Shown here: piece after piece, positions 2,881 through 37,646 of the stretch | Position numbering within the stretch: the first letter of the stretch is position 1 | Layout of the letters: each line of letters opens with the position of its first letter | Virus genome (UHGV): UHGV-0286546 | From: a virus | Strand: one strand, 5' to 3' | Length of the DNA: 64,000 bases | Notes under the pieces: model-generated | The model's database searches: none | Told to the model about the DNA's origin: nothing | Seen by the model: only the letters and a program-made list of their open reading frames with translations | Made by a program: the position numbers and the translations under genes

Positions 2881-4071
2881 ATGGATACCAAAGTAATAGA
2901 ATTTTTTCGTAAGTTAGATGAATACTACGATAGAGCAGCTGCTAAATATAACTTGCCCTATAACAAAAACCGTCTTAGTGGAATTGCAGGTATATTAACA
3001 ACTGCTAAAGATAATGGTGATTCTTATAAAATCTTATTAAAAGGAAACTATCTTAAAAACTGGAGTTCAGATTTACTCGGCACAGTTCTCGATGTTTTAC
3101 CGGAACTTACACAAGAAGATAAAGATAAGATTTTATCACATCCCAAATTCGCAGAATACATTTTAATTTCAGAAGACGGTGAAATCAGTCATTTGTTTGA
3201 ATCATCTGTTGTTAGAAAGATGATTAAAAGCTGTGAACAAACACTCGAAAAAAATGATTATAGTCGTAAATACCTTTATACCTATGATACTATTTTATCT
3301 AGTATGTCAGATCCTTTTAATCCTACAGATGAAGAAATCTATAATATATTCTTACATCATGATTTAGATTTCTTAGAAGTCTTTAGAGAAGTTTGGGGTG
3401 ATAGAGTATTAGATATTGCTATCAAAGCAATTGACTACAAGGTTAATGTTAAAAAAGACTTAGCAATGAAGAGTTCAGTACTCATAAGCGGTGATATTTT
3501 TAATGAATTAGCTGTGCGATGGAAAGGAGATATTAATGCTTTTAGCTTCGCATGGCTTGATTGTGTAAAAGTTGAATCTTTCTATAAACTGTGTACAAAA
3601 GATAAAAGATACTATAAAGCAATCCCTAAGTTTATTTCACATGATGAACATAAAGCTGTTCCAAATAATGTATTTAATGAAAAAGATACATTTGATGAAA
3701 CATTTAGACTTCTTATGCTTATTGCTAAGGTATGTCAAAACAGAGAGATACCTAAATATCAAGCTGCTAAATTAAAACAGTATGTAGCATTGATTAAGAT
3801 TCATGATTATAAATTTGAAACGATTGTCGATACATTGCTTGACTGTAAAGATAATCCTCCAGCTGAACTTCCTAAAGAACAGAAACCAGCTAAAACTAAA
3901 ATGTATATGCTTATTGGTTCAGATGGATCAGCAAGAGCATTTAATACACAGAGTGAAAGATTAAAGGCTCTAAACGAATTAACTGAAGAAAATCCAACAG
4001 TTAAATACTTTAAGTCAGTCGCTACACTTAAACCTGAAGACGAAGGAGAATTACAGAATGAGAACAACTGA
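2881..4071 (+). CDS. hypothetical protein (396 aa)
   Basis: Long ORF tightly coupled to the upstream gene (ggagaATGaaagATGG). Confidence 0.7.
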   Translation: MDTKVIEFFRKLDEYYDRAAAKYNLPYNKNRLSGIAGILTTAKDNGDSYKILLKGNYLKNWSSDLLGTVLDVLPELTQEDKDKILSHPKFAEYILISEDGEISHLFESSVVRKMIKSCEQTLEKNDYSRKYLYTYDTILSSMSDPFNPTDEEIYNIFLHHDLDFLEVFREVWGDRVLDIAIKAIDYKVNVKKDLAMKSSVLISGDIFNELAVRWKGDINAFSFAWLDCVKVESFYKLCTKDKRYYKAIPKFISHDEHKAVPNNVFNEKDTFDETFRLLMLIAKVCQNREIPKYQAAKLKQYVALIKIHDYKFETIVDTLLDCKDNPPAELPKEQKPAKTKMYMLIGSDGSARAFNTQSERLKALNELTEENPTVKYFKSVATLKPEDEGELQNENN

Positions 4072-4360
4072 AGAACTTAAAACCATATTTCTGAAAAGTC
4101 ACAATCAGTTATTACAGAATATGCAGAGACAAGCTACCGAATTTGCTGAAGCTATGCTTAATAAAGATGAGTCAGTAGCTAAAGCAAGGTATGTTGAAGT
4201 TAAAAATGCTGCAGATAAAATATTAAAAGAAAATAATGTGACTGCAGAAGAATTAGAAATCATTAAAGCACATCAAAAAGAATGGGTAAAAGATGCCATG
4301 CAAGATGTACTTAGTGTATTAACCAACCAGATGAAAGGAAAAGACAATGAAAGCATATAA
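4058..4360 (+). CDS. hypothetical protein
   Basis: ORF overlapping the upstream stop. RBS gaaggagaattacagaATG. Confidence 0.6.
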   Translation: MRTTEELKTIFLKSHNQLLQNMQRQATEFAEAMLNKDESVAKARYVEVKNAADKILKENNVTAEELEIIKAHQKEWVKDAMQDVLSVLTNQMKGKDNESI

Positions 4361-4820
4361 AGTAGATACGATGCTAGTACGCGAAGAAGCACTTAAAGAA
4401 CTCGATGCTTTTGCTTGGCGTAATGGTTACGGTCGTATCAATAAAGAGGATATGAGTAGCTGGTGTCCTGAAGTTAAAAAAGAATGGAAGAATTGTTACT
4501 CACTTGTATATAGTAAATACAGAGGTATAGCGGCAAGGAAAGCAGCAAATCTCTGGACATCAGTACTTAATAACGGTAACTTAGAAAAGATATTTGCTAG
4601 TTATGGTTTTGTCTTAGCTGACGGTAGGGTATACGTTCATGACAATGCTTCAACTATCATTAAGGCTGTACTTAAAGCTGCAATTAACGAGATTGAAAAA
4701 GAGATTGGTATTAAAGGTATCAAGATAAGACCAAGAATTACAGCCGGTAGTCATAATCTACTTGATTGGTCAGATGCACATATCGAAGAAGAAGAGGAAC
4801 AAGAAGAAAAAGAAATTTAA
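4347..4820 (+). CDS. hypothetical protein with acidic C-terminal tail
   Basis: ORF with RBS aaaggaaaagacaATG. Ends EEEEEQEEKEI. Confidence 0.6.
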   Translation: MKAYKVDTMLVREEALKELDAFAWRNGYGRINKEDMSSWCPEVKKEWKNCYSLVYSKYRGIAARKAANLWTSVLNNGNLEKIFASYGFVLADGRVYVHDNASTIIKAVLKAAINEIEKEIGIKGIKIRPRITAGSHNLLDWSDAHIEEEEEQEEKEI

Positions 4821-4826
4821 TTCAGT

Positions 4827-4858
4827 AGAAATAACGGCTTTACATATTTATTATTTTG
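4827..4858 (+). promoter_or_regulatory. sigma70-like promoter (ggcTTTACA-N17-TAATAA)
   Basis: Instance of the recurrent TG(T/C)TTTACA motif. About 70 nt upstream of the 4928 start. Confidence 0.45.
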
Positions 4859-4927
4859 TAGTAATAATAAACCAATAATTAAATGTAATGGTGCATTTAA
4901 TAATTTTTTAATGAAAGGAAATCAACT

Positions 4928-5395
4928 ATGTTTACTGTATATCCAACTAAAATGAAATCTATGACCAACATGCATAAATCTTTTGAAACCGAAATGGAAG
5001 CAAAAGAATATGTAGCAAGCAGAAAAAACCCGGATAACTATACAATCGAGTTTAATGGTACAAAAACTGACCATACAGCAACAAATTCAGAAATTGCTAC
5101 TACGAATACTGAAAATAAACAGAATGCATCCACGGGTCAAAAAAAGGCTCCTAAAATTGAAATTAACTTTGAAGATGCAGTAAGAATCACGAGGGAGAAT
5201 GTACGCCACTTCTATGGTAAAGCTGGTTATATCCAAGTTGTCAATGAATCCGGTGAAGTATTACATATCGGAAAGACTAAGAATATGGGTAAAGTATTTA
5301 GTAACTATGTAAACTGTGCTCGATATAATCAGTCTTACGATTTTAACCTAGATGGTACTGACCAATTGTTCTTCAAAGAATGTTTAATTGACTAA
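4928..5395 (+). CDS. hypothetical protein
   Basis: ORF with RBS gaaaggaaatcaactATG. Confidence 0.6.
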   Translation: MFTVYPTKMKSMTNMHKSFETEMEAKEYVASRKNPDNYTIEFNGTKTDHTATNSEIATTNTENKQNASTGQKKAPKIEINFEDAVRITRENVRHFYGKAGYIQVVNESGEVLHIGKTKNMGKVFSNYVNCARYNQSYDFNLDGTDQLFFKECLID

Positions 5396-8776: not shown

Positions 8777-9064
8777 ATGGCTATTTTACCACTATCAAAT
8801 TATATTAGAAGGTACTTAACACAAGGATCTCAATTGGCTTTTCATACTACTAAAGGAACTAAAATAATTGCTCCAGGTATGATATTTGGTTTACGTTTAT
8901 CTCATGATCGTAGAAAAATAAGATGTATTATAGAAGATGAAATCAATAAAGTCTTTACACTTACTAGAGAAGATTATCAATACTTATTAGATAATTCAAT
9001 TTCTATTCCTGAAGCAATCAAAGAAGGATACCTAACAGAAGATAAACTAACTATTTATGACTAA
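8777..9064 (+). CDS. hypothetical protein
   Basis: RBS taaaggaggaatatactATG. Confidence 0.6.
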   Translation: MAILPLSNYIRRYLTQGSQLAFHTTKGTKIIAPGMIFGLRLSHDRRKIRCIIEDEINKVFTLTREDYQYLLDNSISIPEAIKEGYLTEDKLTIYD

Positions 9065-9245
9065 CCCTTTCTTTTCTTCTGTTTTTCGTTTTTCTTTTTA
9101 TATATTTTTTCTTTTAACTTTTATTATTCTTTTCTTTAATATTTATTATTATTAATTTTAAATTTTATTATTTTTTTATTTTAACTTTAAATTTTTATTT
9201 TCATTTAACATTTAATATTTTTTATTATTACTTTTTTTAATACCC
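9064..9245. repeat. T/A low-complexity tract (poly-T / TTTTA-type microsatellite-like)
   Basis: About 180 bp with almost no G or C, made of ttttc/tttta/ttatt units. Followed by a purine-only tract at 9250-9300. Confidence 0.7.
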
Positions 9246-9350
9246 TTACTTTATTTAAGAGAAGTGAAAGAAGAAAACAAAGAAGAAAGCGAGAGAAGAT
9301 GCAAACACAGTTTAGAACCAGGTACTACGTAAAACCCAAATTATAAATAC

Positions 9351-9391
9351 CAAGTTACGCACAGCTTTTTGCAAGTTACGCACAGTTTTTT
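9351..9391 (+). repeat. direct repeat caagttacgcacag ×2, each followed by a T-run
   Basis: Exact 14-nt repeat at 9351-9364 and 9372-9385. Confidence 0.8.
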
Positions 9392-9429
9392 AATCTACTA
9401 ATAAAAAATATAAAAAATACTTAAAAAAT

Positions 9430-9461
9430 TGCTTTACATTATCCATTTATTATGACATAGT
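9430..9461 (+). promoter_or_regulatory. promoter-like element (aaaaattGCTTTACA … ATGACATAGTAT)
   Basis: TGCTTTACA core with an upstream A-tract. Also matches the T4 MotA-box-like TGCTTTA with TATTAT 11 nt downstream. Confidence 0.4.
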
Positions 9462-9719
9462 ATATTTGTTAGCTTGAGTGAATCATGTTAATTACATTTA
9501 AGTTTAAATTTGATCTTTATATTCCGAATTAATAAAGAATTGGTAAACATGTAGCCAGTTGTTTTGTTGATTTGTTAGTTGCTCCTCCTTGTTGGTTACC
9601 TCTTATTAGCCAACGCAAAGAATGTTATAATGCTTCTTATATGGAAGTTAACCATCTGCAACTGTGGAATGATTAGATGGAATTATAACGATAAGAGTTT
9701 TGTCATCTTTGGAAGTGTG

Positions 9720-9774
9720 TATTCGCATAATCTATCCTTTTATCCTTTTTTGGGCGCAAATAGATCTCAGAATA
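9720..9774. repeat. motif pair tattcgcataatct … agatctcagaata (copy 1)
   Basis: The same two motifs recur at 10248-10319, each copy followed by a T-run. Confidence 0.6.
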
Positions 9775-9928
9775 CACACTTCTTTTTTATTTATCTCTCG
9801 TTTATTCTCCCTCGTCTTGTTTAAAGCTCATACAGTAGCATTTCCTATAAAAGATATACAAACTACCAGTAAAATAAATTAGACTATCCAGAAGTCAAAA
9901 AACAAGGTATTTAAAAAGGTATAAAAAA

Positions 9929-9960
9929 TGCTTTACAAATAAAATAAATCATGACATATA
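9929..9960 (+). promoter_or_regulatory. promoter-like element (aaaaaTGCTTTACA-N17-CATATA, with ATGACATA box)
   Basis: Near-duplicate of the 9430 element. Confidence 0.4.
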
Positions 9961-10247
9961 TATAATTGTTATTTTTCAGATAAATGAGCTCTTTGTATTC
10001 ATTAACTCGAAATAACAGCTTTCTTCAAGCATCGGCTACCGGTGTAATATATAATATCGATGAGTTATATATTATATCAGGAGGGGTTGCATAACCTTTC
10101 TTTGGTCGTTTATTTGTTTTAGGCCAAATAAAATAACGTTGTAATGCTCTAAATATAAAGAGTTAACAGTTCGCAACCTGAAATGTAAGGAACTGAATTA
10201 CAATAAAAACGAATAATTTACAATGTGTTATAATAACTATAGGTATA

Positions 10248-10319
10248 TATTCGCATAATCTTCTTAAACATGTTCGTTGGCCCGTTCTGTACTAGAAGAT
10301 CTCAGAATATATACCTTTT
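10248..10319. repeat. motif pair tattcgcataatct … agatctcagaata (copy 2)
   Basis: Lies immediately 3' of the minus-strand MTase-like gene (stop at 10323). Confidence 0.6.
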
Positions 10320-10322
10320 TTC

Positions 10323-11300
10323 TTATCCTTTATAATACTGAATTCCATACTTCTTTATAAATAACCCACATCTATTAACATCTGTATTAACTTCTGGTCC
10401 TACAAATATATAATCAGGAGCTTTAACATGTTCTTTAATAAGCCCTACCCATTCTATAAAGTTATAATACATATTTTCTGGTGTACCTTTCCATCTTTCT
10501 GTATTAGGACCAAAGGGAGGACATACAAATACTGTCTTATCTGTTTCTACTACTTGTGCTAATACATCTCTCTGTACCCATCCATAATATTTACAAAAGA
10601 TTGGATTAATGTCATAAGCTTCTATTTCTGCATCTATATTGTTTTTCTTATAATACTTTCTTGCTCCTTCTATTATACCACCAAATCCTGCCATAGGACA
10701 ATATATGCCTTTAGAAATATCTTTACCACTTTCTTCTAATATCCTTTCAAAAGCAGAAGGCATAAGAGCAGTTACCTTTGGAGCAATCTTAGCGATAGTA
10801 AACCTATGTAATACTTCTTGTAATAAACCTATATCATTATCCTTAAATACTTTTTCAACCCTATTACAAAACTCTTCATACTTATTACCTTTTATACTAT
10901 CATTAATTATCTTAAATAAGTTGTTGATAGCTTTTATTAAATATTCCGGTTTATTCCACGCTTCTTTAGGTGATAACTTACCAGATACATAACAGTCCCA
11001 AATAGGATGATCTGCTGGCCATTTTTTAGTACCCGGAAAAGCACTTCTTAAACACTTATTTAGTATATATTCATCAGTTAATCCAAATAAACTATTAACC
11101 TTTTCTAATTTTATTCCTTTTGTTTTACCGGTATGACTATCTCTCATCTTTTGCTTTGTTAATTCAGATACTACATACTTACCTTGTTGTTTCCTATAAG
11201 CACTGACACACCGACATGAACAAAACTGTCTACCTTTTCTAGCAGGATGAAATAACTTACCACAATACTTACATTCTATATCTTCTTTCTTATTCATCAT
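10323..11300 (-). CDS. Zn-ribbon + NUMOD-like DNA-binding N-domain fused to SAM-dependent DNA methyltransferase-like domain
   Basis: N-terminal CKYCGK…CSCRC zinc ribbon. NUMOD3-like TKQKMRDSHTGKTKG segment. Motif I-like IYCPMAGFGGIIEGA (FxGxG). Motif IV-like VFVCPPFGP ((S/D/C)PP(F/Y)), typical of N6A/N4C MTases. Confidence 0.55.
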   Translation of the reverse strand: MMNKKEDIECKYCGKLFHPARKGRQFCSCRCVSAYRKQQGKYVVSELTKQKMRDSHTGKTKGIKLEKVNSLFGLTDEYILNKCLRSAFPGTKKWPADHPIWDCYVSGKLSPKEAWNKPEYLIKAINNLFKIINDSIKGNKYEEFCNRVEKVFKDNDIGLLQEVLHRFTIAKIAPKVTALMPSAFERILEESGKDISKGIYCPMAGFGGIIEGARKYYKKNNIDAEIEAYDINPIFCKYYGWVQRDVLAQVVETDKTVFVCPPFGPNTERWKGTPENMYYNFIEWVGLIKEHVKAPDYIFVGPEVNTDVNRCGLFIKKYGIQYYKG

Positions 11301-11985
11301 TGTCTCCTTTCATGTCAGATCCATCCCAAGGTCTACTTGCATTTATATATGAATCTAATGGTCTAAGATTTTCTAATGCCCAACACTTTTTAAAATCTTC
11401 ACAATATATGTCTGTAATATTAAAAGTATTTACTGGTCTAATATGATCTATTTGCCAAGTTTCTCTTAGTCCTTTAGCTGTTAAACCAAGATTATCCCAA
11501 CTCATCCAATCTTCAAACTGACTCTCTAAATGCTTTTCTAAATCTTGTATACTATATCCTAATATATTACGTATACTATCATCTTTTTTATTTATAAGCG
11601 ATCTTCGTACTGCCGTCGATATAATGCATCTTAATTTATATCCAATATCACTAGCATACCTTTCATTTTTCCATTTACGATTATACTCGGCTTTTATCTT
11701 TCTTTGCTCTTCAGTCCTATTCTTATGCCATTTTGAAGCTTCTTTCTTATGTGTTTGGTAATATTCCTTTTTATAATCAGGGTTATTCGTTCTAAACCTT
11801 TCATTTTCTTTTTTAATTTTTTCAGGATACTTCATACAATACCTTTTACGTGCAGCTAATACCTTTTCCCTATTTGCTCTCTTCCATCTACGATTCCTTT
11901 CATTCTTTATTAATCTAGCTCTTTCTAAAGGATCTTCTACACTAATAAACATCTCTTCTATACCTTTATATAAATCATCAGTCAT
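11290..11985 (-). CDS. HNH homing-endonuclease-like protein
   Basis: C-terminal HNH core WQIDHIRPVNTF…CWALENLRPL. Highly basic Lys/Arg-rich N-half. Confidence 0.65.
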   Translation of the reverse strand: MTDDLYKGIEEMFISVEDPLERARLIKNERNRRWKRANREKVLAARKRYCMKYPEKIKKENERFRTNNPDYKKEYYQTHKKEASKWHKNRTEEQRKIKAEYNRKWKNERYASDIGYKLRCIISTAVRRSLINKKDDSIRNILGYSIQDLEKHLESQFEDWMSWDNLGLTAKGLRETWQIDHIRPVNTFNITDIYCEDFKKCWALENLRPLDSYINASRPWDGSDMKGDNDE

Positions 11986-12013
11986 TACAGCATCAATCCT
12001 TTAATCACTTCGT

Positions 12014-12041
12014 TAGTATATTAACATTATCTAGAATTACA
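12014..12041 (-). promoter_or_regulatory. candidate promoter for the HNH gene (TTGTAA-N16-TATACT on minus strand)
   Basis: Reverse complement of 12014-12041. The motif agtatattaaca is duplicated at 12050-12061. Confidence 0.3.
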
Positions 12042-12100
12042 ACTTTGTCAGTATATTAACAAAAGAAATTTCAAAAGTAAATACCTAACTTTCCAAAAGT

Positions 12101-12151
12101 ATTAAAAAGATAAATATAAAAGAAATCCCCCAGATTTTACTCCAGGGGATT
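12101..12151 (-). terminator. rho-independent terminator downstream of MCP gene
   Basis: Stem atcccc/ggggat (12125-12130 / 12145-12150) followed on the minus strand by a T-rich run. Confidence 0.5.
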
Positions 12152-12187
12152 CTTGATTCTACAATAATATCTTGCTAAATCAACAAC

Positions 12188-13771
12188 TTAGGCGTGAGCT
12201 TGGTTGAAGTTAGCAATAGCACCACGTACCAAGTACTCAGGCTTATTGATGAACAAATCATAGAAAGACATAGCGCCTTTGTGATTCTTCAAATTAGGAG
12301 CTTGGAAAGTAGGTGTGAAATAGAGCGGGATCCACTCAGCTAAAACAATTGCCGAATCACCTAACTGGAATCCTTTGAAACCGAAGACAACCTGATCAAC
12401 CGGTAATGTCTTAGTATAAGGAACAGCGATAACAGCAATAGTACCGTCACGCAATGTACCAGCTAAGTAAGGTCCAATCGGTTTCTTAGCTTCAGGAGCT
12501 GCTTTGAAACCTTCGATTTGTTCTACGATTGTTAAACCTTGACGAGCAGAAACAATCATGAATTCAACTGTACCACGACCAGCAACTTCTTGGATAATAC
12601 CACGAGCACTAGAAATAGTAGTTGTATAAGCAGAATATCTCTGTTGTAAGGTTAAGTTAGCACCGTTTGCAGCACAATCAAATGTCAAATCAGCGTTCGG
12701 AGTAGCAGCAGCATATACACTGTGGATCAATGACAAATCACGTTCCCAACGAATAGTACCAGCAATTTGGTTAGCAATCAATTCATCAGTGTCAATTGCT
12801 AAGTGAGCGTTCATTACCAAACCAGCTGCAACACTGTAAGAACTCATTAACGGGTGCTGCTTAGCTAAAATAGGCTGATTAGGAATATCGAACTGAATCT
12901 TACGAATCAAATCAACATCTGTTTCAACATCAACAGCAGCTTCGAAACTCAGCATAGCATTCTCAGCAATAGCATCAGCATACATAGTAGCATCCAATTT
13001 CAATGTAGCTACACCAGTCTGAGCATTAACTGTACCAGAAACACCACGACCAATTACATTGTATGCACCACTGTTAACACCATCCAACTGCGCAGAACCA
13101 TTACCATAGTCACGTGCAATCTCTTTACCTGCTAAACGAACGATGAACGAACCAGCACGTACTTTAACTGTAGCATCAGAAGGCAATGCAGCAGACGGAT
13201 TAGCAGTTACATCAGCAGTAGCCTGAACATCTGTATACCCAATGAACTCAGAAGAATACGTACCATCTGTCGGATTCTCAAATACAATGTCACCAGCTTC
13301 AACACCAGCAGCGTCTTGAGAATAACGTGTTTTGATGATGAAGATTTGGCCAGACTGACGATCTAAAGCTTGAATATCAGCAATGTAGTTTGCTACCATT
13401 TGCGGATAAAATACATTAACGATATCAACGACTTTAGGAGTCAAGCTTGCAACACCAGGGCTGAGCAAAGAAACAGCAGAAGTAGAAGCGTTACCGCCAA
13501 AATCTTCGTGCAGGATATTGCGACCTGTGTAAGGAGTATCTGGCTGTTGAGCGATGTATTCAGCAGTATTTTCTAAGAGCTGAACCATAGTAGCGGCTTG
13601 GTATTTAGCTTCTTTAGAGTCAGATTCCAGAGCTTTTACGAGAGCCGGGCAGCGTTTGCCGAGAGTAGATTCACTGAGAACTTCTGCAGCGTGAGCGATA
13701 CCTTTATTGATTCTTTCGCTACGGGCTTTAGCAACCAGTGACTTATTTTCAACTTTGGTTAAGATAGACAT
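12188..13771 (-). CDS. gp23: major capsid protein, T4 gp23-like
   Basis: 527 aa. Recognisable gp23-family segments (…PKVVDIVNVFYPQMVANYIADIQALDRQSGQIFIIKTRYS…, …GRGTVEFMIVSARQGLTIVEQ…, …AIVLAEWIPLYFTPT…). GC content clearly higher than surrounding genes, consistent with high expression. Confidence 0.85.
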   Translation of the reverse strand: MSILTKVENKSLVAKARSERINKGIAHAAEVLSESTLGKRCPALVKALESDSKEAKYQAATMVQLLENTAEYIAQQPDTPYTGRNILHEDFGGNASTSAVSLLSPGVASLTPKVVDIVNVFYPQMVANYIADIQALDRQSGQIFIIKTRYSQDAAGVEAGDIVFENPTDGTYSSEFIGYTDVQATADVTANPSAALPSDATVKVRAGSFIVRLAGKEIARDYGNGSAQLDGVNSGAYNVIGRGVSGTVNAQTGVATLKLDATMYADAIAENAMLSFEAAVDVETDVDLIRKIQFDIPNQPILAKQHPLMSSYSVAAGLVMNAHLAIDTDELIANQIAGTIRWERDLSLIHSVYAAATPNADLTFDCAANGANLTLQQRYSAYTTTISSARGIIQEVAGRGTVEFMIVSARQGLTIVEQIEGFKAAPEAKKPIGPYLAGTLRDGTIAVIAVPYTKTLPVDQVVFGFKGFQLGDSAIVLAEWIPLYFTPTFQAPNLKNHKGAMSFYDLFINKPEYLVRGAIANFNQAHA

Positions 13772-14269
13772 AGTAGTTTAATTTCCTATATTAAGTTTTA
13801 AGTTAAACGTTTATATATTTTTAGTTTTTTGTATAGATAGTATGTATTTATATCTATGTCCAGAGTAGTGTAAAGATCCCGTAGGATGGGAAACTTAGTA
13901 TTAGTTATTTAATTAGAACAGTATATTTATGATAAAGTAGTGATTTGGAAGAATTTTTTTGTAAATTTTTTTATTTTAGTTGTATATGTAGGTATATATG
14001 TGGAGTATTTGGGTTAATGTAAGTATGTTATCGTATATATGAGTAGTGTAGTATATAGTAGATAAAAGGTAACGTGATGAGATTGTATGTAGTTATATGG
14101 TGTATGTGTATATATAGGTTGTAGGAATTTTTAGGAAATGTGTCGGCGTAGGTAGATTGTGATATATAGTGGGTATGTATGATTGTAGATAATTGGTTTT
14201 ACGTTTACTGTATTACATGGTATAGTAATGGTAATAATGAAATGAATGATATGAGAGGATGAGCTACGT

Positions 14270-32651: not shown

Positions 32652-32661
32652 TAAGTTATCT

Positions 32662-32692
32662 GTTTTACATATATAGCTAATTGTGTCATAAT
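32662..32692 (+). promoter_or_regulatory. sigma70-like promoter (cTGTTTTACA-N17-CATAAT)
   Basis: TTTACA at 32664-32669 and CATAAT at 32687-32692. Confidence 0.5.
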
Positions 32693-34681: not shown

Positions 34682-34698
34682 AGTTACCTCTTATTTTT

Positions 34699-34729
34699 GT
34701 TTTACATCATTTATTTTATATGACATACT
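34699..34729 (+). promoter_or_regulatory. promoter-like (tTGTTTTACA-N17-CATACT, with ATGACATA box)
   Basis: Shares the tgacata element with the 9430 and 9929 elements. Confidence 0.4.
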
Positions 34730-37615: not shown

Positions 37616-37646
37616 TGCTTTACAAAACACTTTCCTTATGTTATTA
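37616..37646 (+). promoter_or_regulatory. sigma70-like promoter (tTGCTTTACA-N17-TATTAT)
   Basis: TTTACA at 37618-37623 and TATTAT at 37641-37646. Confidence 0.5.

Follow-up and report, generated by a model that had tools for sequence, protein, structure and literature searches.

What occupies the 1258 bp between positions 9065 and 10322 of the 64,000-nucleotide (nt) stretch of viral genome UHGV-0286546 analysed here (hereafter the window), in which short genes are tightly packed at a G+C content of ~29%? An earlier note on this DNA had listed a T/A-rich tract, a purine tract, a repeated 14-mer, paired motifs, two promoter-like elements and a palindrome, and had offered a replication origin, a packaging site or a small-RNA locus as explanations. 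The listed motifs are all present in the sequence, with several coordinates and descriptions corrected below, and the small-RNA option is right in kind: the right-hand 0.9 kb (9430–10322) very probably consists of two tandem, paralogous genes on the + strand, units A and B, that encode a structured non-coding RNA (ncRNA) not described before, each running from a promoter to a terminator and sharing a covariation-supported fold. Promoters, terminators, paralogy, the fold with its covariation, the conservation of one single-stranded motif and the absence of the family from Rfam were all computed from the sequence. The left-hand part (9065–9429) is an indel-prone, length-polymorphic low-complexity spacer.

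Units A and B can be aligned along their full length, the conserved blocks being the promoter, the RNA core and the terminator strands; motifs occur in pairs in this region because the two units are paralogous. The near-identical elements TGCTTTACA-N13-ATGACATA at 9430–9459 and 9929–9958, rightly called promoter-like in the earlier note, are the predicted promoters of the two units, which share the layout A-tract / TGCTTTACA / 13 nt / aTGaCATAnn. The promoter of unit A (9424–9461, + strand) has an A-tract, a −35 box TTTACA (9433–9438), a 17-nt spacer with TG at 9453–9454 and a −10 box CATAGT (9456–9461), and that of unit B (9923–9960, + strand) an A-tract, TTTACA (9932–9937), TG (9952–9953) and CATATA (9955–9960). 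Both thus carry the elements of a sigma-70-type extended −10 promoter, namely a −35 near TTGACA, a spacer of 16–18 nt, TGn and a −10 near TATAAT upstream of transcribed units. The motif has six matches in the window (with up to three mismatches) against 0.5 expected. The same class lies 5′ of + strand genes at 14198, 14705, 16379, 27888, ~32661–32664, ~34698–34701 and ~37616–37619, and a TGCTTTACA-type promoter also lies 5′ of the homologous RNAs in other phage contigs. A recurrent consensus before + strand genes, (A-tract) TG(C/T)TTTACA – N14 – TGnTATAnT, resembles what we take to be the T4 early promoters (GTTTAC at −35, A-rich upstream element).

The predicted transcript of unit A (9468–9793, + strand, ~325 nt) consists of a 5′ hairpin (~9526–9573), the core (9575–9697) and a terminator, while that of unit B (9967–10322, + strand, ~355 nt) has a 5′ domain with a hairpin at 10041–10078, the core (10083–10216) and a terminator, its 3′ end directly adjoining the convergent gene's stop codon at 10323. 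The hairpin in the 5′ domain of unit B is the palindrome of the earlier note, which exists, with its arms at 10045–10055 and 10065–10074 rather than spanning 10040–10075. The terminator of unit A (9711–9793, + strand) is a long hairpin (9711–9783, −25.5 kcal/mol) followed by the U-run UUCUUUUUU, and that of unit B (+ strand) a hairpin at 10241–10316 (−24.7 kcal/mol) followed by UUUUUUC; in both units a stable hairpin with an immediate U-run, as in intrinsic (Rho-independent) terminators, is thus present. The two motif couples reported previously, TATTCGCATAATCT (9720–9733 and 10248–10261) with AGATCTCAGAATA (9762–9774 and 10297–10309), are the two strands of each terminator hairpin together with an internal loop that is conserved; the end of the second couple is at 10309 and not, as had been stated, at 10319. 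A simple terminator scanner found neither terminator, both hairpins exceeding its length and loop-size limits.

Both transcripts are predicted to fold more stably than shuffled sequences, with a minimum free energy of −84.3 kcal/mol for unit A (z = −4.9) and −82.9 kcal/mol for unit B (z = −3.8). The small open reading frames (ORFs) within the units, of 15 amino acids (aa) in A and 36 aa in B, are unshared between the paralogues and have no ribosome-binding sites. An 81-aa TTG ORF (9579–9824) overlaps the structured RNA of unit A and is not credible as a gene; with this ORF discounted the region is, as the earlier note had it, the longest non-coding stretch of the window, and otherwise it is not. 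The closest relative is contig L018, whose neighbouring protein is 96% identical. Unit A shows no substitution against it in 315 aligned nt, with indels confined to loops (among them one of 8 nt in the apical loop of the terminator), and unit B shows 8 substitutions in 353 (345/353 identical), in a 9.6-kb neighbourhood that is 93.9% identical.

A more distant homologue, in L031, was spotted by eye as an RNA in the same slot with the same junction, and an initial covariance model was built on units A and B with L031, a later one on six sequences. Unit A scored 78 bits (R1) and 57 bits (R2), and unit B 86 and 73 bits. Homologues were confined to related phage contigs, namely L031, L011 (the same contig as L085; 57 bits), L033 (60 bits), L101/L102 (60 bits), L003 (54 bits) and L013 (24 bits, E ~0.01–0.04), with E-values ranging from 1e-12 to the value for L013, and the family totals eight distinct sequences. 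The 4227 models of Rfam 15, which include OLE, ROOL, GOLLD, C4, 6S, tmRNA, RNase P, SRP, riboswitches and ribozymes, gave no match at the gathering threshold in the whole window; a permissive search of 9000–10400 returned noise alone (E > 4, scores less than half of gathering), and the loci of the four best homologues had no Rfam match either. Scanning the genomes of 185,579 species with one exact pattern revealed no family member, viral contigs scanned for exact copies of the terminator couple and of the junction motif gave zero matches, and blastn and nhmmer searches of the units against the related loci retrieved just promoters or the near-identical L018. Scans with patterns designed on CACCTCCTT plus GTTATAATGC gave mostly false positives, namely L083, L084, L086–L089 and L090–L093, which were discarded on covariance-model score and inspection by eye; they are a reverse-complemented ribosome-binding site beside a −10 box. 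The RNA closes with its own terminator opposite a convergent gene in six of seven genomic contexts. The family member at L013:16640–16880 (− strand) forms a 5′ leader and, lacking a terminator, continues into the ribosome-binding site of a 115-aa ORF, the Shine-Dalgarno (SD) sequence of which is also sequestered within a local U-rich hairpin.

In our model, the core of the RNA (~125–170 nt) combines the hairpin Pa with the three-way junction P1/P2/P3, and two pseudoknots lock them together. From 5′ to 3′ it would comprise the 5′ strand of pseudoknot 1, an anti-SD-like strand, Pa (the loop of which is the 5′ strand of pseudoknot 2), a linker, the 5′ strand of P1, P2 (closed in every case by G-U and C-G pairs), a brief junction such as UAA, P3 (with the 3′ strand of pseudoknot 1 at the start of its loop), a junction of one to three nucleotides, the 3′ strand of P1, one nucleotide and the 3′ strand of pseudoknot 2. 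Predicted partners are thus the segment just 5′ of Pa and the first nucleotides of the P3 loop, and likewise the Pa loop and the nucleotides just 3′ of P1. In unit A (all on the + strand), pseudoknot 1 joins GUUGC (9578–9582) to GCAAC (9658–9662); Pa (9591–9614, GUUGGUUA / UAGCCAAC) exposes the loop CUCUUAU (9600–9606), whose partner AUAAGAG lies at 9691–9697; and the junction (9624–9689) is made of P1 (9624–9631/9682–9689), P2 (9632–9636/9644–9648) and P3 (9652–9657/9675–9680). The 5′ part of unit B (10086–10128, + strand) contains GUUGC of pseudoknot 1 (10086–10090), the anti-SD-like strand (10091–10100) and Pa (10101–10128) with the loop UUAUUUGUUUU (10110–10120). Its junction part (10138–10216, + strand) contains P1 (10138–10145/10197–10204), P2 (10146–10150/10159–10163) and P3 (10167–10172/10190–10195), together with the 3′ strands of pseudoknot 1 (GCAAC, 10173–10177) and pseudoknot 2 (AAAACGAAUAA, 10206–10216).

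Both pseudoknots change in sequence from one family member to the next. Pseudoknot 1 reads GUUGC / GCAAC in units A and B, GUUUGC / GCAAAC in L031, UUCUGC / GCAGGA in L011, GUUCUGC / GCAGAAC in L033, AAGUCA / UGACUU in L003 and GAGAU / AUCUC in L013. Pseudoknot 2 reads CUCUUAU / AUAAGAG in unit A, UUAUUUGUUUU / AAAACGAAUAA in unit B, GACAUAU / AUAUGUC in L031, UUAUAUAU / AUAUAUAA in L011, UAUGUAC / GUACAUA in L033, UUAUACUUUUG / CAAAAGUAUAA in L003 and UGGCAUAU / AUAUGCCA in L013. The divergent homologues could not be aligned by MAFFT; therefore, equal-length, N-padded manual alignments were used, with a pair counter that ignores N. In the manual alignment of seven sequences, standard pairs fill 99.3% of 267 cells and 30 of the 45 pairs show compensatory changes, a result matched by none of 500 shuffles, whereas pairing falls to 34–46% when the partners are slid by one to three columns. 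All cells are paired in both pseudoknots across the seven sequences, with compensatory changes in six of seven pairs of pseudoknot 1 and six of 11 pairs of pseudoknot 2. An alignment made by the model, which covers the nested helices only, has 96.8% of its cells paired and 19 of 27 pairs compensatory. Helices are thus kept by compensatory changes, as expected of a structured ncRNA family, in seven sequences and in an alignment fitted to the structure.

Among the unpaired sequences of the family, none is better conserved than the strand lying between pseudoknot 1 and Pa; its consensus, (C)ACCUCCUU(UC), is like the 3′ end of 16S ribosomal RNA (rRNA), the tail of which we take to be CACCUCCUU, the anti-SD region. 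It reads GCUCCUCCUUG in unit A, where it forms the single strand (G)CUCCUCCUU(G) at 9583–9590 (+ strand), GCACCUCCUUUC in L031 and L011, GCACCUCCUUGC in L033, UCACCUCCUUCA in L003, UACCUCCUUUCG in L013, GCACAUCCUUGC in L101/L102 and, in a degenerate form, AUAACCUUUC in unit B (10091–10100). CCUCCUU is present in six of the eight distinct sequences while all flanking helices vary. The stretch of unit A has a predicted mean unpaired probability of 0.81, against 0.37 for the whole RNA; for that of unit B an upstream GGAGGGG is the predicted partner, in competition with pseudoknot 1. The ribosome-binding sites of the phage genes are AAAGGAG(G). The RNAs at L101:5546–5688 and L102:5480–5622 are near-identical variants of the L033 RNA (139/143 nt) in which a C-to-A change within the anti-SD stretch converts CACCUCC to CACAUCC. 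This change fits AAGGAU-type ribosome-binding sites, which are common in the window, and CAUCCUUUC of L101/L102 also occurs in the family-2 RNA of L020.

What might such an RNA do? Most likely, we infer, it acts in trans and engages either SD sequences or proteins that bind the 16S tail. Action in trans is the simplest reading of the promoter-to-terminator units, and it is favoured because these units face a convergent gene in all but one of the contexts. In the mechanism that we propose, each gene would be transcribed rightward from its own strong sigma-70-type promoter and transcription would stop at its own terminator; the rigid double-pseudoknot fold would present the anti-SD mimic in trans; and the RNA, if abundant, could pair with SD regions, be they the AAAGGAGG sites of small genes nearby or those of host messages. 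Such pairing would damp translation of the bound messenger RNAs (mRNAs), making the RNA a counterpart of a translational repressor. The whole explanation, anti-SD mechanism included, is to our mind nearly balanced, leaning slightly towards doubt; the anti-SD mechanism taken specifically is tentative, possible rather than probable.

Several points weigh against this proposal. Expression, action in trans and the target are inferred. The family is small, with just eight distinct sequences, and the key alignment was hand-built to fit the structure from few sequences, and its pairing percentages are inflated as a result. The phage's own messages would be hit by a generic anti-SD as well, and duplex prediction against the translation-initiation regions of the window gave no clear outlier target. 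The stretch is degenerate in unit B (AACCUUUC) and predicted to be paired internally there (unpaired probability 0.08), nor is it invariant elsewhere, L101/L102 having CAUCCUU. The L013 leader without a terminator fits cis-regulation better than action in trans. Finally, the spacer is also little substituted with respect to L018; low divergence is therefore not specific to the RNA units and argues for constraint on, or recent origin of, the whole intergenic block and not the RNAs alone.

The main rival to SD pairing is protein capture, and the two are not told apart here. The fold would be right, but the 16S-tail mimic would serve as a decoy titrating a reader of the 16S 3′ end or of the SD–anti-SD helix (bS21, Era, IF3, S1, a 16S-tail nuclease or a host defence toxin are candidates), with no mRNA pairing. 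The anti-SD and SD–anti-SD mimic of OLE RNA binds bS21 (PMC12054373), the internal GGAGGGG:CCUUUCU duplex of unit B resembles an SD–anti-SD helix, and so elaborate a double-pseudoknot scaffold is more typical of a protein or ligand binder than of a simple base-pairing small RNA. However, the internal SD-like partner exists only in unit B, the gene for bS21 is absent from the window and the related phage loci, and no partner protein is conserved beside the RNA, a Pfam search of the neighbouring small proteins giving no match; we regard the decoy as unlikely. The scaffold could also belong to a riboswitch-like aptamer or cis-regulatory sensor, two pseudoknots around a three-way junction being aptamer-like, whose folding would determine if the anti-SD is free to mask a downstream ribosome-binding site or affect the terminator; in that case, the copies standing alone would govern read-through that runs antisense to the convergent late genes. 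The L013 member suits this idea, lying 30–40 nt ahead of a start codon with its SD, from which no terminator separates it, and having an anti-SD/SD pairing of −12.5 kcal/mol (equalled by 1.7% of shuffles), and in unit B pseudoknot 1 and the SD-like:anti-SD hairpin are mutually exclusive. On the other hand, a terminator and a convergent gene leave no cis target in six of the seven contexts, complementarity between anti-SD and terminator is no better than in shuffles in units A and B, L011 and L031, and no consistently associated gene hints at a ligand, so that we consider a sensor quite unlikely. Membership of a riboswitch or cis-leader class, which calls for a constant place in the 5′ untranslated region of a regulated gene and an expression platform coupled to the aptamer, was rejected, L013 being the only leader, as was an antiterminator formed by the anti-SD stretch and the 5′ strand of the terminator, which does no better than shuffles in four of six terminated members. 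A doubtful alternative detaches the RNA from translation altogether: it could be an anti-defence decoy, a scaffold or a processing substrate in which CCUCCUU is kept for a tertiary contact. The motif is not invariant, sequence cannot reveal function, and ROOL and GOLLD are examples of the many large RNAs carried by phages to which no role has been assigned. Against this, the stretch stays constant while pseudoknot 1, Pa and P3 vary freely, and a tertiary partner inside the core is hard to find because every helix that could be contacted changes sequence freely. Moreover, CCUCCUUUC-like runs also occur in the unrelated same-slot RNAs of L019, L020, L029 and L049 (21 pyrimidine versus 4 purine motifs in 6.3 kb).

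The other proposals of the earlier note were an origin of replication, unwinding-prone and laden with repeats, and a site for DNA packaging. The T/A low complexity of the spacer is real (9065–9245; 88% A+T, 66% T on the + strand), starting immediately 3′ of the stop codon that ends the last rightward small gene, whereas the tract at 9250–9300 that had been described as purine-only is 80% purine, rising to 89% in 9256–9300; the latter is present in L018 and is loosely complementary to the pyrimidine-rich 9065–9100. The 14-mer CAAGTTACGCACAG does occur twice (9351–9364 and 9372–9385), as a tandem duplication with the copies 21 bp apart (9351–9385). L018 has a single copy (a 20-bp alignment gap) and lacks 44 bp of the T/A tract; because it is without the second copy, the 14-mer pair is a recent, strain-specific tandem duplication and not an iteron array. 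Folding of 9055–9425 is no better than that of shuffles (z = −0.78), and more distant relatives have no comparable spacer at this junction. The low-complexity part is real, yet without sign of function. An origin or packaging site would be in keeping with the very high A+T content of one tract, the purine/pyrimidine asymmetry of another and the presence of a direct repeat, all in the longest gene-free stretch of the window, but the repeat and the tract are as variable as described, the remaining repeats all belong to the two RNA genes, the GC-skew change follows gene orientation and the spacer is missing from this junction in more distant relatives; this explanation is very unlikely. We also rejected an iteron-type origin, which has at least three regularly spaced conserved repeats beside an A+T-rich element, and a skew-defined origin, the local change at 9–13 kb coinciding with the leftward capsid module (10323–13771). 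A packaging RNA (pRNA) of phi29 type (~120–170 nt, with intermolecular loop-loop pairing, from phi29-like podoviruses whose genomes are protein-primed) was discarded as well, with no Rfam pRNA match, a T4-type capsid gene and a genome of ~230 kb. The sequence TATAAATA, which we take to be the T4 late-promoter consensus, has 33 copies in the window and is too common in this A+T-rich sequence to interpret; it occurs at 9342–9349 (+ strand), just before the duplicated 14-mer, and at 13845–13852 (− strand), ~80 nt upstream of the start of the capsid gene.

The region separates a rightward series of small genes, the last of which ends at 9064, from a leftward module (10323–13771, − strand) made of a T4 Gp23-type major capsid gene (12188–13771, − strand), a gene for a 231-aa protein and one for a NinG-like 325-aa protein (10323–11300, − strand). 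The window also encodes NrdD (anaerobic ribonucleotide reductase) and a DNA polymerase, and a scan for transfer RNA (tRNA) and tmRNA genes found none across its 64 kb. BLAST searches of the region, 11.7 kb of flank and the L031 RNA against 50,697 phage records gave no DNA match, and the capsid protein is less than 40% identical to that of any cultured phage; the relatives are viral contigs of 150–230 kb from rumen, pig-gut and other gut metagenomes. From the encoded genes, the lack of a match among deposited phages and the size and metagenomic source of its relatives, we conclude that the source is an uncultivated low-GC jumbo phage with a genome of ~230 kb and an anaerobic host in gut or rumen. 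In the NinG-like protein, the motifs MAGFGG and CPPFGP are invariant in the C-terminal two thirds (alignment A3) and resemble motifs I and IV of N6-adenine/N4-cytosine DNA methyltransferases, while Pfam gave just a weak, N-terminal NinG match. In L022–L024 (~3982–4986) the place of the 231-aa gene, between the capsid and NinG-like genes, is taken by a GIY-YIG (SegE-like) homing endonuclease gene, and in L094/L095 a NUMOD3 protein occupies that position. The second-longest gene-free stretch of the window (13772–14269, 498 bp), between the divergent capsid gene and rightward genes, has promoter-like sites on both strands and no member of the RNA family.

Other ncRNAs with promoter and terminator, unrelated in sequence to the family, lie at the junction downstream of the NinG-like gene in relatives: L019:3294–3695, L020:2485–2824, the L029/L025 slot, L101:5042–5400, L096:3196–4298 and L100:1298–2129. 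They include at least two further slot families, one with a terminator common to L019 and L020 and the other with a terminator common to L101 and L096. The junction slot in relatives thus looks like an ncRNA gene island. A wider reading would be that a gut/rumen jumbo-phage clade carries, where the capsid module adjoins a small-gene cluster taken as early, a strongly promoted ncRNA island whose main family, a compact double-pseudoknot scaffold, displays a 16S-tail mimic to manipulate translation initiation; by means of RNA alone, the mimic would either soak up SD sequences or capture a factor that reads the 16S tail. We consider this reading somewhat doubtful.

Overall, the RNA family is new, with a testable but unproven link to translation. 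An origin-like region, with its A+T-rich tract, repeats and palindromes, is fully explicable as RNA genes plus junk spacer, and the family can be added to Rfam-type annotation. To our knowledge, only a small number of structured RNAs are encoded by phages, and hardly any of them has been assigned a role. Here the fold, with two covarying pseudoknots, is defined well enough for modelling or structure solution, and a conserved single strand identical to the mRNA-selecting part of 16S rRNA yields a directly testable hypothesis, that of an RNA-based take-over or temporal control of translation by large anaerobic gut/rumen phages. If true, this would be the first phage-encoded "ribosome-tail mimic" RNA.

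Among known systems, ROOL, first seen in rumen metagenomes, and GOLLD are likewise phage-borne, highly structured ncRNAs of similar environments whose role is not known, but their models gave no match at any threshold tried, they are two to three times longer with another architecture, and they are typically near tRNA genes, of which the window has none. P1/P7 c4, P4 CI RNA and DicF are 50–80 nt long, simple stem-loops that block ribosome-binding sites of specific, nearby-encoded targets. They resemble the RNA described here in being phage-encoded and terminator-ended, with short exposed stretches complementary to ribosome-binding regions; however, their Rfam models gave no match, and the RNA described here is far larger, double-pseudoknotted and predicted to expose a generic anti-SD. 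In Gram-positive bacteria, RsaE/RoxS and RNAIII pair with SD sequences through unpaired C/U-rich motifs and end with an intrinsic terminator. A C/U-rich unpaired stretch and an intrinsic terminator are also found here, although there is no homology, and their motifs sit in hairpin loops, usually in several copies, whereas here one stretch is held between a pseudoknot and a hairpin. Repression by RNA being only proposed here and RegA being a protein, the likeness to T4 RegA, an early phage factor that halts translation by occupying ribosome-binding sites, is a functional analogy only. Finally, region P6 in OLE RNA contains an anti-SD mimic and binds bS21 (PMC12054373). OLE is ~600 nt long, chromosomal in Bacillota and associated with oapA/B/C, whereas the RNA of 320–360 nt described here is phage-borne and has no bS21 gene nearby; the fold is different, with no sequence or structural homology and no match to the Rfam OLE model. 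Both are nevertheless large structured ncRNAs with a copy of the 16S 3′ tail, CCUCC(U) (PMC12054373), and the likeness is strongest for unit B, the only member in which this stretch is predicted to be paired to an SD-like strand.

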